Assembly (NCBI GenBank): GCA_951406725.2
Contig: OX597832.1
Span: 59,334,001 to 59,398,000 of the forward strand
Direction of reading: 5' to 3'
Origin: Octopus vulgaris
Taxonomy: Eukaryota
DNA: 64,000 nt
Part shown: positions 6,076-53,995 of the stretch, piece by piece
Numbering within the stretch: position 1 is the stretch's first letter
Layout: every line of letters begins with the position of its first letter
Program-made: the position numbers and the translations under genes
Notes under the pieces: generated by a model
The model's database searches: none
Told to the model about the DNA's origin: nothing
What the model saw: the letters and a program-made list of their open reading frames with translations, nothing else

Positions 6076-6300
6076 TTATTTGTATAATTAATTAATAAGG
6101 GTGAGAAAGTCAGTACGCTATTAATGAATTAAATGTAATTTTACTTACAAAAAAAATCCATTTGTAGCTCGTCAGCCAAAACTATCTGGATGAAATCCAC
6201 TCAATCACACGCCAGATTTTACCATAACGATAAATACGCGTGTGGTTCAATTGATTACATCCGACGTTATAATTCAAATGCCCCAACTAACAGCGCGCCA

Positions 6301-6383
6301 TTTGGCTGACGAGCTACAAATGGATTTTTTTTTTGTAAGTAAAATTACATTTAATTCATTAATAGCGAAACAATTGTCCCAAA
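6301..6383 (+). ncRNA. Type-I hammerhead ribozyme (535-bp family)
   Basis: tttgg-CTGACGA-GCTA...TAGC-GAA-ACAATTGT-C-ccaaa; predicted GUC cleavage after 6378. Confidence 0.85.
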
Positions 6384-6838
6384 ATAATCTGTATTTTTGT
6401 TATTTTTTATTTGCCCTGTCCGTGTGAGCTAACAATCGTACTGACTTTCATGGGAAACATGTATTTTCGTGGTTGAAACCTTTTGGATTAACTGGTGCTA
6501 GAGTGAGCAATATAGTGACCACTCTCTTATATTTATTTTGTAAAAAATATTATAATATGTTATAAAATATTATAATAATCCAGGTTTCTCGTAGCACTAG
6601 GCCACTTGGTGTTGAATAGATATACTATTAAATTAGTATCTAATTCTCTCACCCTTATTAATTAATTATAATTATGCTGCATTTATTTCTAAATGCTGTA
6701 TTTGTTTTCCGTGAAAGTTTGGCGCGCTGTTAGTTGGGGCATTTGAATTATAACGTCGGATGTAATCAATTGAACCACACGCGTATTTATCGTTATGGTA
6801 AAATCTGGCGTGTGATTGAGTGGATTTCATCCAGATAG

Positions 6839-6921
6839 TTTTGGCTGACGAGCTACAAATGGATTTTTTTTGTAAGTAAAATTACATTTAATTCATTAAT
6901 AGCGAAACAATTGTCCCAAAA
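6839..6921 (+). ncRNA. Type-I hammerhead ribozyme (535-bp family)
   Basis: ttttgg-CTGACGA-GCTA...TAGC-GAA-ACAATTGT-C-ccaaaa; stem I extends as cagatagttttgg/ccaaaataatctg. Cleavage after 6915, 537 nt from the previous site. Confidence 0.88.
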
Positions 6922-7078
6922 TAATCTGTATTTTTGTTATTTTTTATTTGCCCTGTCCGTGTGAGCTAACAATCGTACTGACTTTCATGGGAAACATGTA
7001 TTTTCGTGGTTGAAACCTTTTGGATTAACTGGTGCTAGAGTGAGCCATATAGTGACCACTCTCTTATATTTATTTATT

Positions 7079-19043: not shown

Positions 19044-22000
19044 AGTGGGTAGCAAACTTCTTCACTACTTCAGGGAGTGACGACCCTGCCTGACACGAGA
19101 TCCGGGCTCAGCTGGCTCCGATATGGGCCCCTATCCAGGGTTACGGAAAGGAGACAACCTTCAAAGAAATCCGGAGTGGAGCCCCGAAGGCGGTTTAGTG
19201 TTCGACTCGACACTCTTCCGGCAGATCCTGCAACCAAGCTGGTGCCAAACGTAATGCTCTGCACTCCTTTGGACGACATCAGCAAGGTGGAGAGAGGAAA
19301 CCTGACGATTGGGCTACCCAGGACTTTCTTATATCTAGTCCAGGCCTGCGCAAAACTGGACAGGACACTTCAGTGCTGCTGTAAAAAGCTGCAGAAACAA
19401 CACAGGAAGTAACAGTCACGAGTGATAAGTCCATTCAGATTGGCGTAAAATATGGGCGCTACGGGTTACTTCTGACGGTGGGAGGGACCTCCGTGTCCTA
19501 TTGGTTAGCTACTGCCCACCTCAAGCTGGGCAGCCCCCAGTTAATAATGTGCTTACCCGCCACAGGCCGCCTGCTTCATTGGGTGCTTGGAGCTAAGAGT
19601 ATAACTTGAAAAGTGGCCTGCAACCTCTGCACCAGGCAAACAACTAAAAGACAAGAAACCACCAGTCCTGCGGTTGGCAAGCTGGAAAGTCAGGACCATG
19701 TGCCCTGGAATATCTGATGATCTACCCAGGGTTGAAGACACAAGGAAAACGGCCATCATTGACCGTGAACTAAAGAGGCTTAACATAGACATTGCTGGGC
19801 TACAGGAGACAAGACTTCCCTCAAACGGCAAACTCAAAGAACAGGATTTCACCTTCTTTTGGCAGGGAAGCGATCCAGAAGAACCCCGTCAGTATGGCGT
19901 TGGCTTTGCAGTGAGAAACTCATTACTCTCCTCAATAGAATCACCATCAGAAGGCACTGAGCGTATCCTCTCACTGCGCCTCTCGACTTCTTCTGGCTCA
20001 GTACATCTACTCAGCATCTATGCTCCCACTCTCTACAGCTCAGAGGAGACCAAGGACCAGTTCTACAAAGATCTCAAATGTGTCATAAAAACTATACCAA
20101 CAACTGAAAATATCTACCTTCTAGGGGACTTTAACGCTCGCGTGGGATCTGACCATGATTCGTGGCCCATTTGTGTTGGACACTTTGGTATTGGTAACAT
20201 GAATGACAATGTTCAGAGACTACTCGAATTCTGCACATACCATAACCTGTGCATCACAAACACATTCTTTACCAACAAGCCATCCCACAAGGCATCTTGG
20301 AGACATCCAAGATCTCACCACTGGCATCAGCTGGATCTCATCATTACACGGAGATCCTTTCTGAATTCTGTTCTACTGACCCACAGTTACCACAGCGCGG
20401 ATTGTGACACAGACCACTCACTAATTAGAATTAGGGTAAGGATTCTGCCTAAAAAAGTCCATCTCTCCAAAAAAGTGGGCCGACCATGCATTAACACAGC
20501 TAGAACCTCGTACCCTACACTGCGAAAATGTTTTGCTGCTTCTATCAAGGTTGCCCTCGGTAGCTGCCCAACCTCCTCTGCTGAAGGTAGGTGGAATTAT
20601 ATCGGGGAAGCTTTGTATACCACATCAATAGATACTCTCGGCATGAGAGAAAGGCAAAACCCAGATTGGTTCAATGCTGGGCTCTCAGAGCTGGAGCCAG
20701 TTATCGAAGCAAAGCGTGCAGCTCTGATGCAATACAAGAGTGATTCTTCTACAAAGTCACTCGAAGAACTCAGAAAGGCAAGAAATAAAACCCAACTGAC
20801 AGCCAGACGCTGTGCAAATAGGTATTGGCAGGAAATCTGTCAGAGTATCCAGTCAGCTGCCGACAGGGGCGACACCCGTGGGATGTATGCCGGTTTGAAG
20901 AAGGCCCTCGGTCCATCCGCAACCAAGTCAGCCCCTCTGAAATCAACTACTGGAGATCTCATCAGGGATCAAAGCAAGCAAATGGATAGATGGGTGGAGC
21001 ACTACCAGGATCTCTACTCACGGGAGACTACAGTAGCTGAGGCTGCAATCGAGAGTGTCAAGATCTTGCCAGTCATATGCGAACTTGACAGTCCGCCATC
21101 TATAGCAGAGCTCACCAAGGCTATTGACTCCCTAGCAAGTAACAAGGCTCCGGGAAAAGACGGCATCCCCTCAGAGATCATCAAAGTCGGCAAAAACACC
21201 ATCCTGCTTCGGCATCTTCATGAGCTTCTGTGTCAGTGCTGGGAAGAGGGTACAGTCCCTCAGGATATGCGGGATGCTAATATCATTTCGCTTTACAAAA
21301 ACAAAGGTGACCGCGGTGATTGTAATAATTACCGTGGAATATCTCTTCTAAGCACTGTTGGAAAGACCTTTGCTCGCGTTATCCTGGCCAAGCTACAACT
21401 ACTTGCTTCTCGAATCTATCAGGAATCGCAGTGTGGCCTTAGAAGAAGCAGATCAACTATTGATATGATATTCTCCATACGCCAACTTCAGGAGAAGTCC
21501 AGAGAGCAGAAAATGCCATTATATATGGCCTTCATTGATCTAACAAAGGCCTTTGACTCGGTAAGTAGAAAACGCCTCTTCATCCTGCTCCAAAAAAATC
21601 GGATGTCCACCAAAGCTGCTGAGGATCATCAATTCTTTCCATGATTATATGCAAGGCACCATACAGCACAATGGTTCAACATAAGCCGCCTTCCAAATAA
21701 AAAACGGGGTAAAGCAAGGTTGTGTCCTCGCTCCTACATTATTTGGCATTTTCTTCTCGTTCTTGCTCTCACATGCCTTTCAGACATCAGATGATGGAGT
21801 GTTTCTGCACAATAGAAGTGACGGGAAACTGTTGAATCTCTCGCGCCTGCGTGCCAAGACCAAAATCAGAAACGTCCTGATCAAGGAGATACTATTTGCT
21901 GATGATGCCGCTCTGGTATCACACACAGAAGAAGCCCTCCAAAGGCTCATTAACTGTTTTGAGCAAGCATGTAACGACTTTGGCTTAGCTATCAGCCTTA

Positions 22001-22899
22001 AGAAGACCAACATCATGGGTCAGGCTACATCGGACATCCCAAACATACATATTGGAGACTACAGATTACAGAAGGTGGAGAAGTTTACCTATCTTGGCTC
22101 TACCGTCACCTACAACCTATCCCTTGACGCTGAGCTCAATATACGCATTGGCAAGGCAGCTGCTGCGATGGCCCAACTCTCCAAACGGGCATGGGACAAC
22201 AATAAGCTGACCAAGACCACGAAAATGAAGATCTACCAAGCATATGTACTTAGCACTCTACTGTATGGAAGTGAGACTTGGACGCTATACACACGCCAAG
22301 AGCGTCGCCTAAACATCTTTCACCTGCGCTGCCTCCGGAAAATCCTCCGCATCAAATGGCAGAACCATATCCCCAACAAAGATGTCCTCAGGCAAGCAGG
22401 AATACCAAGCATGTTTGCACTCCTCACACAAAGACGTATGAGATGGCTTGGGCATGTTAGCCGTATGAAAGAATCCCCAAGGACATACTCTACGGAGAGC
22501 TTGCTAGGGGTACTAGGTCTGTGGGTAGACCGTTCTTACGTTACAAGGATGTTTGCAAAAGGGACATGAAGGCCTGCAACATCAATATTAGCTGTTGGGA
22601 AGCAATTGCCAGCAACCGTGGAGATTGGCGATGTACCGTAAAAGAGGGAATACAAAGGAGTGACAGAGAGAGAGAGGAGAAATGGAAAGACAAGAAAAGA
22701 CGTCAACAAGAAACTATGATACTACAACCAGCCAGGAACAGTCTTCGCTACATTTGCGGTACCTGCCAGAGGAAGTGTTTGTCCAGGATAGGACTACACA
22801 GCCACAGCAGGAAATGTATCAGGACATGAAATGTAAAAGCCGGACTGGACTATTTTATGCGCAACTCCATTGTCTCCCGAGACAAAAAGGATGCCAACA
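19044..22899 (+). mobile_element. Full-length RTE (BovB-like) LINE with 11-bp target-site duplication
   Basis: attatatgagt is duplicated at 19033-19043 and 22900-22910. About 600 bp of 5' leader, then an APE endonuclease + RT ORF, then a short 3' UTR ending ccattgtctcccgagac...gatgccaacaa, typical of RTE 3' ends. Inserted at the end of an (ATT)n tract. Confidence 0.95.
19674..22829 (+). pseudogene. Disrupted RTE polyprotein (APE endonuclease, reverse transcriptase, C-terminal Cys/His motif)
   Basis: Motifs GLQETRL, LSIYAPT, GDFNARVG, DCDTDH (EN); KAPGKDGI, NYRGISLL, FIDLTKAFDSV, GVKQGCVLAPTLF, LFADD, FTYLGS (RT); C-terminal CGTCQRKCLSRIGLHSHSRKC*. Lesions: +1 frameshift in the A-run at about 21592-21598, in-frame TAA at 21682-21684, and a frameshifting deletion at about 22470 (the RIPKDILYGEL frame resumes). 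Confidence 0.93.
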
Positions 22900-36784: not shown

Positions 36785-37075
<291 letters not shown>

Positions 37076-37076
37076 T

Positions 37077-37142
<66 letters not shown>

Positions 37143-37291
37143 AATATAAGAGAGTGGTCACTATATTGCTCACTCTAGCACCAGTTAATCCAAAAGGTTT
37201 CAACCACGAAAATACATGTTTCCCATGAAAGCCAGTACGACTGTTAGCTCACACGGACAGGGCAAATAAAAAATAACAAAAATACAGATTA

Positions 37292-37371
37292 TTTTGGGAC
37301 AATTGTTTCGCTATTAATGAATTAAATGTAATATTACTTACAAAAATCCATTTGTAGCTCGTCAGCCAAGA
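37292..37371 (-). ncRNA. Type-I hammerhead ribozyme (533-bp family)
   Basis: Reverse complement reads cttgg-CTGACGA-GCTA..TAGC-GAA-ACAATTGT-C-ccaaaa. Confidence 0.85.
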
Positions 37372-37824
37372 CTATCTGGATGAAATCCACTCAATCACAC
37401 GCCAGATTTTACCATAACGATAAATACGCGTGTGGTTCAATTGATTACATCCGACGTTATAATTCAAATGCCCCAACCAACAGCGCGCCAAACTCTCACG
37501 GAAAACAAATACAGCATTTAGAAATAAATGCAGCATAATTATAATTAATTAATAAGGGTGAGAGAATTAGATACTAATTTAATAGTATATTTATTCCACA
37601 CCAAGTGGCCTAGTGCTACGAGAAACCTGGATTATTATAATATTTTATAACATATTATAATATTTTTACAAAATAAATATAAGAGAGTGGTCACTATATT
37701 GCTCACTCTAGCACCAGTTAATCCAAAAGGTTTCAACCACGAAAATACATGTTTCCCATGAAAGCCAGTACGACTGTTAGCTCACACGGACAGGGCAAAT
37801 AAAAAATAACAAAAATACAGATTA

Positions 37825-37904
37825 TTTTGGGACAATTGTTTCGCTATTAATGAATTAAATGTAATATTATTTACAAAAATCCATTTGTAGCTCGTCAGCC
37901 AAGA
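37825..37904 (-). ncRNA. Type-I hammerhead ribozyme (533-bp family)
   Basis: Same motif, 533 bp from the previous copy. Confidence 0.85.
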
Positions 37905-38895
37905 CTATCTGGATGAAATCCACTCAATCACACGCCAGATTTTACCATAACGATAAATACGCGTGTGGTTCAATTGATTACATCCGACGTTATAATTCAA
38001 ATGCCCCAACCAACAGCGCGCCAAACTCTCACGGAAAACAAATACAGCATTTAGAAATAAATGCAGCATAATTATAATTAATTAATAAGGGTGAGAGAAT
38101 TAGATACTAATTTAATAGTATATTTATTCCACACCAAGTGGCCTAGTGCTACGAGAAACCTGGATTATTATAATATTTTATAACATATTATAATATTTTT
38201 ACAAAATAAATATAAGAGAGTGGTCACTATATTGCTCACTCTAGCACCAGTTAATCCAAAAGGTTTCAACCACGAAAATACATGTTTCCCATGAAAGCCA
38301 GTACGACTGTTAGCTCACACGGACAGGGCAAATAAAAAATAACAAAAATACAGATTATTTTGGGACAATTGTTTCGCTATTAATGGATTATTGTAAGTAA
38401 TATTACATTTAATTCATTAATAGCGAAACAATTGTCCCAAAATAATCTGTATTTTTGTTATTTTTTATTTGCCCTGTCCCTGTGAGCTAACAATCGTACT
38501 GACTTTCATGGGAAACATGTATTTTCGTGGTTGAAACCTTTTGGATTAACTGGTGCTAGAGTGAGCCATATAGTGACCACTCTCTTATATTTATTTTGTA
38601 AAAATATTATAATATGTTATAAAATATTATAATAATCCAGGTTTCTCGTAGCACTAGGCCACTTGGTGTTGAATAGATATACTATTAAATTAGTATCTAA
38701 TTCTCTCACCCTTATTAATTAATTATAATTATGCTGCATTTATTTCTAAATGCTGTATTTGTTTTCCGTGAAAGTTTGGCGCGCTGTTAGTTGGGGCATT
38801 TGAATTATAACGTCGGATGTAATCAATTGAACCACACGCGTATTTATCGTTATGGTAAAATCTGGCGTGTGATTGAGTGGATTTCATCCAGATAG

Positions 38896-38978
38896 TTTTG
38901 GCTGACGAGCTACAAATGGATTTTTTTTGTAAGTAAAATTACATTTAATTCATTAATAGCGAAACAATTGTCCCAAAA
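38896..38978 (+). ncRNA. Type-I hammerhead ribozyme (533-bp family)
   Basis: ttttgg-CTGACGA-GCTA..TAGC-GAA-ACAATTGT-C(38972)-ccaaaa. Confidence 0.88.
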
Positions 38979-39431
38979 TAATCTGTATTTTTGTTATTTT
39001 TTATTTGCCCTGTCCGTGTGAGCTAACAGTCGTACTGGCTTTCATGGGAAACATGTATTTTCGTGGTTGAAACCTTTTGGATTAACTGGTGCTAGAGTGA
39101 GCAATATAGTGACCACTCTCTTATATTTATTTTGTAAAAATATTATAATATGTTATAAAATATTATAATAATCCAGGTTTCTCGTAGCACTAGGCCACTT
39201 GGTGTGGAATAAATATACTATTAAATTAGTATCTAATTCTCTCACCCTTATTAATTAATTATAATTATGCTGCATTTATTTCTAAATGCTGTATTTGTTT
39301 TCCGTGAGAGTTTGGCGCGCTGTTGGTTGGGGCATTTGAATTATAACGTCGGATGTAATCAATTGAACCACACGCGTATTTATCGTTATGGTAAAATCTG
39401 GCGTGTGATTGAGTGGATTTCATCCAGATAG

Positions 39432-39511
39432 TCTTGGCTGACGAGCTACAAATGGATTTTTGTAAGTAATATTACATTTAATTCATTAATAGCGAAACAA
39501 TTGTCCCAAAA
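39432..39511 (+). ncRNA. Type-I hammerhead ribozyme (533-bp family)
   Basis: tcttgg-CTGACGA-GCTA..TAGC-GAA-ACAATTGT-C(39505)-ccaaaa. Confidence 0.85.
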
Positions 39512-40018
39512 TAATCTGTATTTTTGTTATTTTTTATTTGCCCTGTCCGTGTGAGCTAACAGTCGTACTGGCTTTCATGGGAAACATGTATTTTCGTGGT
39601 TGAAACCTTTTGGATTAACTGGTGCTAGAGTGAGCAATATAGTGACCACTCTCTTATATTTATTTTGTAAAAATATTATAATATGTTATAAAATATTATA
39701 ATAATCCAGGTTTCTCGTAGCACTAGGCCACTTGGTGTGGAATAAATATACTATTAAATTAGTATCTAATTCTCTCACCCTTATTAATTAATTATATATA
39801 TATATATATATCTTAATGTGTCTTTCTGACTGTCCCACCATCGTTTGGCAACCGATGTTGGAGCGTTTATATCTCCGAAGCTTAGCGGTTCGGCATAAAA
39901 GTCGATAGAGTAAGTACTAGGCTTAAAAAGAATAAGTCCGGCTGTCGATTTCTTCGACTAAATGTTGTGCTCCAGCATAGCCGCAGTCAAATGACTGGAT
40001 CGTGTGAAAGAATAAAAG

Positions 40019-53377: not shown

Positions 53378-53995
53378 AGGCAGACGAAATACCTATTTCT
53401 TTACTACCCACAAGGGGCTAAACATAGAAGGGACAAACAAGGACAGACAAACAGATTAACTCGATTATATCGACCCCAGTGCGTAACTGGTATTTATTTA
53501 ATCGACCTCGATAGGATGAACGTCAAAGTCTACCTCGGCGGAATTTGAACTCAGAACGTAGCGACAAACGAAATACCCATTTCTTTCCTACCCACAAGGG
53601 GCTAAAAACAGAGAGGACAAACAAGGACAGAAAAACAGATTAAGTCGATTATATCGATCCCAGTGCGTAACTAGTACTTATTTAATCGACCCCGAAAGGA
53701 TGAAAGGCAAAGTCGACCTCGGCGGAATTTGAACTCAGAACATAACGGCAGACGAAATACCCATTTCTTTACTGCCCACAAGGGGCTAAACACAGAGAGG
53801 ACAAACAAGGACAGAAAAACGGATTAAGTCGATTATATCGATCCCAGTGCGTAACTAGTACTTATTTAATCGACCCCGAAAGGATGAAAGGCAAAGTCGA
53901 CCTCAGCGGAATTTGAACTCAGAACGTAACCACAGACGAAATACTGCTAAGCATTGCGCCCGGCGTGCTAGCGTATCTGGCAGGTCGCCATCTTC
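53378..53995 (-). mobile_element. SINE family A trimer
   Basis: Three approximately 185-bp bodies with the head at about 53950-53995. Confidence 0.85.

Follow-up and report, generated by a model that had tools for sequence, protein, structure and literature searches.

A variant monomer between predicted hammerhead cleavage sites in a two-armed, retrozyme-like array of Octopus vulgaris

Introduction

Non-LTR retrozymes of animals, as portrayed in the pertinent parts of two reports (PMC7229834; 10.64898/2026.07.22.740005), are non-coding tandem units of low GC content, each of which carries one type I hammerhead ribozyme. Their monomers are strongly folded, and they occur as dispersed dimers to multimers. 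The same parts propose that their spread depends on Penelope-like elements (PLEs) and proceeds via circular RNA. Sections of the first report further describe that hammerheads with a minimal stem III work as dimers, and that ligation of purified retrozyme monomers by RtcB in vitro gives linear and circular dimers as minor products (PMC7229834).

PLE insertions, according to excerpts on their structure, are partial tandems in (TA)n or other AT-rich targets, with a 5′-truncated copy in inverted orientation at the 5′ end and with only one end bearing a tail (PMC8557442, PMC11167929). The PLE protein of an anole is described, in part of the second of these sources, as cutting and extending both strands of AT-rich DNA and as starting at two internal RNA sites (PMC11167929). 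The reverse transcriptase (RT) of R2 jumps end to end between RNAs, adding up to 5 untemplated bases and using microhomology, as set out in portions of another report (PMC4117753). Whether arrays arise by rolling circle, by jumps or from ligated multimers, and why PLEs take their inverted, one-tailed form, are treated as unsettled in those parts of the literature.

Here we describe an array in a 64,000-nucleotide stretch of the Octopus vulgaris genome (hereafter the window; contig OX597832.1, positions 59,334,001 to 59,398,000). The original prediction for this array held that one monomer is a sequence variant bounded by ribozyme cleavage sites, and that the array was built either by RT template-jumping between self-cleaved monomer RNAs or from ligated heteromultimers. 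Judged from its sequence, the element resembles an animal non-LTR retrozyme in its probable manner of working and a PLE in its probable manner of insertion.

Results and Discussion

A large unit with a type I hammerhead motif

The repeat unit is 533–536 nt long and non-coding (longest ATG-initiated ORF, 54 aa), has a GC content of 0.32–0.33, and shows no LTR layout. Its predicted fold is far more stable than those of shuffled sequences (z −6.9). The pattern CTGACGA...GAAAC-AATT-GTC, together with stem I, is present at each full junction, so that the motif is found in every tandem unit (Table 1). The palindromic stem III is predicted to pair with that of a second copy at −7.8 kcal/mol. An Rfam search of the window returned no hammerhead (or other) match, and a DNA search using the hammerhead region returned identical copies only. 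No RNA dataset was listed among those with matching sequence.

In its tandem non-coding organization, its one type I hammerhead per unit, its low GC content, its strongly folded monomer and its dispersal as dimers to multimers, the family is like the animal retrozymes described in the consulted parts of PMC7229834 and 10.64898/2026.07.22.740005. Its unit length lies outside the 150–450 bp quoted there, a range that is descriptive, and we read the unit as a probable larger variant of the non-LTR retrozyme. The octopus family also differs from the retrozymes of those sections in its minimal palindromic stem III, its two head-to-head multi-unit arms and its fixed ends. Neither inverted arms nor mixed-variant arrays are described in the searched parts of these two reports, and a literature search, made largely without subscription papers, found no report of mixed-variant retrozyme arrays.

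Two related CTGATGA...GAAAC-GTT-GT motifs elsewhere in the window (32121 and 46636, plus strand) resemble a second hammerhead-bearing repeat family. Further type I hammerhead-like motifs with a long stem II and a palindromic stem III are present at loci L199, L205 and L206, on both strands in L199. Their sequences suggest that motifs of the L199 type may represent additional two-armed retrozyme families.

Table 1. Features of the array and of the second family locus, in window coordinates
Feature	Position	Strand	Description
Minus arm	37137..38385	−	B0; two full units; meets (TA)n at its 3′ end, unit position 161; central stub of unit ~510–533
Central inversion joint	38382..38385		AATG common to both arms; lies at the base of hammerhead stem II; junction starts at unit 479
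Plus arm	~38382–39796	+	Order: stub, odd unit, B0 unit, partial B0 unit
5′-truncated stub of plus arm	38382..38436	+	Unit 479–533; carries 498T and 487A
Left switch interval	38401..38493	+	B-type 498T to A-type 57A; contains predicted cut after 38436
Odd monomer	38437..38972	+	A1 haplotype, 536 nt; starts directly after one GTC and runs to the next; one private change (38480)
Type I hammerhead motif (predicted)	38895..38980	+	Stem I UUUUGG/CCAAAA, CUGACGA, long stem II, GAAAC-AAUU-GUC; minimal palindromic stem III
Right switch interval	38937..39029	+	A-type 498A to B-type 57G; contains predicted cut after 38972
Full B0 unit	38973..39505	+	533 nt, 33% GC, non-coding
Partial B0 unit	39506..39796	+	Runs to the fixed 3′ end (unit 291), where (TA)n follows
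Second family locus (A1)	6083..7076		Short minus arm 6083–6300 with two internal skips; plus arm 6301–7076

One unit of the array belongs to another subfamily

The array contains a single variant monomer, as had been predicted. This odd unit measures 536 nt, whereas the units of both arms measure 533 nt. It differs from these units, termed B0, by 10 substitutions and by a T-run that is 3 nt longer (T8 vs. T5). Nine of the substitutions (unit positions 57, 66, 131, 234, 240, 336, 353, 461 and 498) are common to other loci of the family and define the subfamily A1. The tenth, 44C (window 38480), occurs only once in the genome. Over 442 nt the odd unit is a coherent A1 haplotype, which is a minority haplotype, and it departs from the family majority at 6 sites.

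The diagnostic bases of this unit had been matched to the locus at 6–7 kb of the window. That locus is A1 as well, but it is not the closest relative: 13 units in 8 other loci lie within one substitution of the odd unit, and the 6.4-kb unit differs by 2 substitutions plus an insertion. The 6.4-kb locus is thus a member of the subfamily with no special claim as donor, and we rejected it as the specific source. The string gagccata, which had been listed among the bases matching that locus, sits in its partial unit at 7042 and is absent from its full unit (6379–6915). The further statement that all other units of the array carry the alternative set of bases holds for the full B0 units but not plainly for the upstream stub, whose 487A is the allele of a third subfamily (B1). 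This base suggests that a third subfamily may be represented in the same arm; changes like it, 8–15 nt from a truncated end, are present in 5 of 189 segments. It may instead derive from the central joint, which is 5 nt away and where the other arm could supply it.

Both junctions of the odd unit read GAAACAATTGTC directly followed by CCAAAAT, with no base gained or lost. Each switch interval contains the GUC and spans 92 nt, or 17% of the unit, so the notion that the odd unit is bounded by the cleavage sites is true only at that resolution. By chance, one switch would fall in the interval between unit positions 498 and 57 with a probability of 0.17, and two independent switches would both do so with a probability of 0.03. 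The chance that both share one interval, of any kind, is 0.16.

These figures are pertinent to a DNA-level event after insertion, in which one unit was replaced or added. It could be gene conversion from an A1 locus, the integration of a DNA circle of unit length that had been excised, or a recombination that involved a cDNA of monomer length. A unit-length circle that integrates by a single crossover would place both switches in the same interval, and the 498–57 interval makes up 17% of the length (probability 0.17). An event of this kind agrees with a minus arm that holds no A1 unit. An A1 locus is also at hand 32 kb away, although it is not the best match to the odd unit, and if 487A is B1, the arm is at odds with a B0 array that simply received an insertion. 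Overall, we consider a DNA-level origin unlikely.

Two head-to-head arms inserted within (TA)n

Inspection of the flanks in the window showed that the region 37137–39796 is a single insertion inside a (TA)n tract. Insertions of the family number in the hundreds. The odd unit does lie inside an array, as had been stated, but this array is not a single tandem run. It consists of two head-to-head arms that point away from the central joint (Table 1). At the second family locus, the minus arm comprises unit positions 268–291, 59–71 and 341–522, joined via 2-nt microhomologies; the internal skips run from 268 to 71 and from 59 to 522, and one of them crosses the cleavage site.

The two loci in the window and 158 others were examined. 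The latter were 76 best matches to the two variants, 42 loci with discordant patterns, and 40 taken from the match lists of chromosomes 1 and 2, a scheme that does not give a random sample. Two adjoining arms are present in 106 loci, and 95 of these pair an end at ∼291 with an end at 155–200. None has 291 on both arms, and one has the short end on both. The short end is exactly 161 in 67 of 129 arms and falls within 157–161 in 108, and 123 of 127 arm ends at 291 have a TA-rich flank. This strict pairing of two start sites, 130 nt apart, with two break ends is the firmest mechanistic signal of the family. At the arm centre, 1–10 bases are shared in 51 of the 106 loci and the joint is blunt in 17.

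In L1 twin priming, both target ends prime on the RNA, and the two cDNAs converge head to head at a microhomology. The octopus arrays are alike in their apparent two-end priming and in head-to-head cDNAs with microhomology, but they differ in that the 291 arm usually passes the second start site and in that both arms can hold many units. No report of twin priming in PLEs was found in a literature search that was conducted largely without subscription papers.

The octopus insertions share several features with PLEs as these are described in parts of PMC8557442 and PMC11167929, including partial tandems, a copy at the 5′ end that is inverted and 5′-truncated, a tail confined to one end and (TA)n or AT-rich targets. 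The putative two internal RT start sites and the putative extension of both strands have their counterpart in sections of PMC11167929. Unlike the PLEs of these sources, the octopus family has no ORF, a tail of 130 nt rather than 30–40 nt, and arms that are often both multi-unit. By analogy, it is likely that a Penelope-like reverse transcriptase synthesized the array at a break in (TA)n.

A further difference from PLEs is that no autonomous partner sharing sequence with the octopus unit was found. The genome holds intact ORFs with RT plus GIY-YIG domains. Of 6136 candidates, 150 were scored, and 32 GIY-YIG loci contained no DNA match to the unit at E<0.01. A young two-ORF PLE family (L203–L217), with an intact 781-aa RT plus GIY-YIG ORF, a pLTR of ∼510 bp and two 3′ ends ∼30–40 nt apart, has no DNA match to the unit and no hammerhead by the patterns used. 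The PLE ORF beside locus L074 was rejected as a partner, since it is a neighbour only, separated by (TA)n. The window itself includes a LINE at 19605–22566 (plus strand), whose two open frames encode AP endonuclease and RT domains.

The two arms of a locus usually represent one lineage. They differ at one core site in 4 of 96 comparable loci and at more than one in none, and private changes run through whole arrays and often through both arms (L066, L068, L082 and L085). Fold-back copying of the first arm was rejected because either arm may be the longer one (14 vs. 2 segments in L063, 13 vs. 1 in L113) and because the arms in the window differ. The junctions of the family favour two fixed start sites, each used once per insertion, and they offer a ready substrate for in vitro work.

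Junctions between subfamilies are rare

Patterns across the cleavage site were counted in the whole 2.8-Gb assembly; as exact patterns, they miss units with extra mutations. Like-with-like junctions number 420 for B–B and 922 for A–A (total 1,342). The A–B pattern has one match, in the window, and B–A has 19. The 18 B–A matches outside the window were rejected as mosaics, being A-lineage variants that carry 498T, in 8 loci. The true between-subfamily junctions found are therefore two among ∼1,360, and both flank the odd unit. Genome-wide counts of mixed B0/B1 junctions were 0 and 0, and patterns of the same geometry found 62 and 89 like-with-like junctions in the examined loci.

Control patterns for switches within the unit gave 24, 40, 37, 0, 15 and 6 matches, and all matched loci were examined except 2 of 14 for one pattern. 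No between-subfamily mosaic that switches in the intervals 66–234, 234–336 or 336–461 was found; the loci examined are uniform intermediate lineages or have single-site differences. The search for such switches covered these three intervals, each on its own. This outcome argues against the DNA-level event described above: no between-subfamily tract was found to end in these intervals, though they constitute most of the unit.

Among 81 loci with at least two full units, 73 show no family-shared difference between units. The largest numbers of such differences are found in the window (9) and then in L113 (6). A check of other arrays for variant mosaics had been proposed along with the original prediction, and in this survey the window is the sole between-subfamily mosaic found. 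The observation of the odd unit is confirmed: it is real as sequence, it is more than chance, and it is rarer than had been supposed.

This rarity could also reflect an artefact of assembly or polishing, given that a long palindrome has its centre next to the unit. The odd unit is unique among the ∼1,360 junctions, it adjoins the inversion centre, and it has a base found nowhere else in the genome (38480). Homopolymer length noise is common in these arrays, and Logan contigs gave no piece spanning the stretch, their pieces of 31–60 nt being too short to phase a 92-nt interval. However, a collapsed consensus is disfavoured by a haplotype that is coherent over 442 nt and is not that of the family majority. 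Moreover, no comparable flip is present in 95 other two-armed loci with the same architecture, and reads from A units would have hundreds of better mapping places. We judge an artefact to be rather improbable. As a feature of one locus, known from the assembly, the odd unit should count as a lead rather than a result.

Arrays are most likely copied from continuous RNA

Arm 5′ ends lie within 5 nt of the cleavage site in 6 of 271 cases, compared with 5.1 expected (p 0.40). In the first 120 loci, 462 of 468 crossings of the cleavage site are exact, and the other six are single-base changes or one-base slips. End-to-end jumping by R2, as presented in portions of PMC4117753, likewise gives continuous cDNA from separate RNAs and could yield a monomer-sized switch, but it leaves untemplated bases and uses microhomology, whereas the octopus junctions are exact, with no surplus of arm ends at the cut. 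The missing pile-up of arm ends at the cut and the unscarred junctions indicate that routine jumping between monomers of different loci is not the array-making route. The proposal that arrays are built by template-jumping between monomers is thus not supported, given 1,342 like-with-like and 2 mixed junctions, the zero counts of mixed B0/B1 junctions, the lack of an excess of ends at the cut site, the exact crossings, and the private changes that extend along entire arrays. Most likely, arrays are copied from covalently continuous RNA, either circles or ligated multimers. The family is young, and its well over a thousand near-identical, marked junctions favour a continuous RNA template. In L032 and L042 marks recur every three units, and L113 repeats a block of four units; these patterns fit multimeric circles, although unequal crossover would look identical.

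Same-strand jumps were flagged in 7 of 160 loci, and some skips with 2–4-nt microhomology occur away from the cut site. The odd unit could be the product of a one-off series of RT jumps, in which the enzyme reaches a linear 5′ end at the cut, jumps to the 3′ end of an A1 monomer, reads through, and jumps again to a B1 monomer. Such a series accounts for two consecutive switches in one arm only. It draws on the short-microhomology skips that the family makes (two in the 6.1-kb arm), on the flagged same-strand jumps, and on the end-to-end jumps of the R2 RT in parts of PMC4117753. Yet R2 jumps, in the same passages, bring up to 5 untemplated bases and microhomology, and both junctions of the odd unit are exact. 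In addition, arm ends are not enriched at the cut site and the observed skips are not located there. We regard this series of jumps as quite improbable.

A rare ligation of self-cleaved monomers may explain the odd unit

Our preferred reading, which we hold tentatively, is that the odd unit records a rare intermolecular, end-to-end ligation of self-cleaved monomers from different subfamilies. Transcripts would cleave themselves after GUC, acting as dimers because stem III is palindromic. A tRNA-type ligase would join the ends, yielding for the most part circles that contain a single monomer or siblings derived from one parent array. Stem I alone would hold the 3′ product of a type I hammerhead, and the head of any monomer can form this stem, so the head of another molecule could be swapped in and sealed. 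The predicted pairing energies of stem I are −6.3 kcal/mol for the A tail and −3.1 kcal/mol for the B tail. A PLE protein would then cut both strands of (TA)n and prime one cDNA at 291 and one at ∼161, each of which would run round or along the RNA for 1–14 units before microhomology joins the two cDNA ends. After such a head swap and sealing, the plus arm would read B1?–A1–B0–B0 and its junctions at the cut would be exact; should 487A represent B1, the next cut would mark a second subfamily change. Because every segment of the minus arm is B0, the arms took different paths and must have started on different units or molecules.

Ligation is favoured by the presence of GUC in both switch intervals, the exact junctions, the clean minority haplotype, the 487A of the stub with its hint of a third subfamily, the minor dimers that RtcB forms from purified monomers in vitro (PMC7229834), and the finding of no between-subfamily switches in the other intervals searched. 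Against it stand the single locus, the 92-nt intervals, and the recombination within monomers in L113 and L119 (see below). Furthermore, self-cleavage, circles and a driving PLE are postulated, and no DNA match to the unit was found in the intact PLE family that was examined. Provided that it is real and was made from RNA, the odd unit would document in the genome an intermolecular ligation at a site set by a ribozyme.

A more general form of this scenario is doubtful. Germ-line ligation would join self-cleaved monomers from different loci head to tail, and a Penelope-type protein would write the resulting shuffled multimers into DNA from both break ends; the window would then contain a B1–A1–B0 chain, and long arrays such as L178 would contain shuffled sibling chains. 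If true, this would be RNA-level recombination with a breakpoint defined by a ribozyme and fixed in the genome.

Mixed sibling arrays

Recurring marks that are present in some units only were found in 17 of 47 loci with at least three full units and in 9 of 15 with at least six. Several long arrays mix closely related sibling units in a non-periodic order. In L178 (G000:C1:158285000-158294999), 15 full units in two arms bear the marks 193G, 285C and 335T, which are non-periodic and never occur two in one unit (P about 0.046). This order possibly fits a shuffling of whole sibling monomers from one parent array.

L113 (G000:C28:10730800-10740799) and L119 (G000:C3:42216000-42223999) are arrays that mix two related haplotypes. 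L113 may be a source locus, given its block repeat and a haplotype that it shares with the short loci L107–L110, L112 and L116. Four-gamete pairs within units (6 of 26 in L113 and 7 of 31 in L119) reveal recombination inside the monomer, and such patchy exchange among units is a point in favour of the DNA-level event for the window. Four-gamete pairs that span the cleavage site, compared with those within units, numbered 3 vs. 0 of 5 in L092, 15 vs. 6 of 26 in L113, and 16 vs. 7 of 31 in L119. This cut-phase and linkage test comprised seven multi-marker arrays, is confounded by distance, and was made after the unreliable marks 213 and 480 of L092 and all gap marks had been dropped; at useful resolution, it did not single out the cleavage site as the breakpoint in these arrays. 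Of the two routes first proposed, ligated heteromultimers are the best reading of the odd unit and agree with the sibling mixing in long arrays, but the case comes from a single locus with wide intervals, and L113 switches inside the monomer.

Two other repeats in the window were noted. A perfect-looking palindrome at 36880–37003, with ∼60 bp per arm, no spacer and its centre at 36941/36942, lies between (TA)n tracts to the left of the array and is possibly a tiny two-armed insertion of another family. At 53381–53944, a 184-bp unit is present in three tandem copies that are 92% alike.
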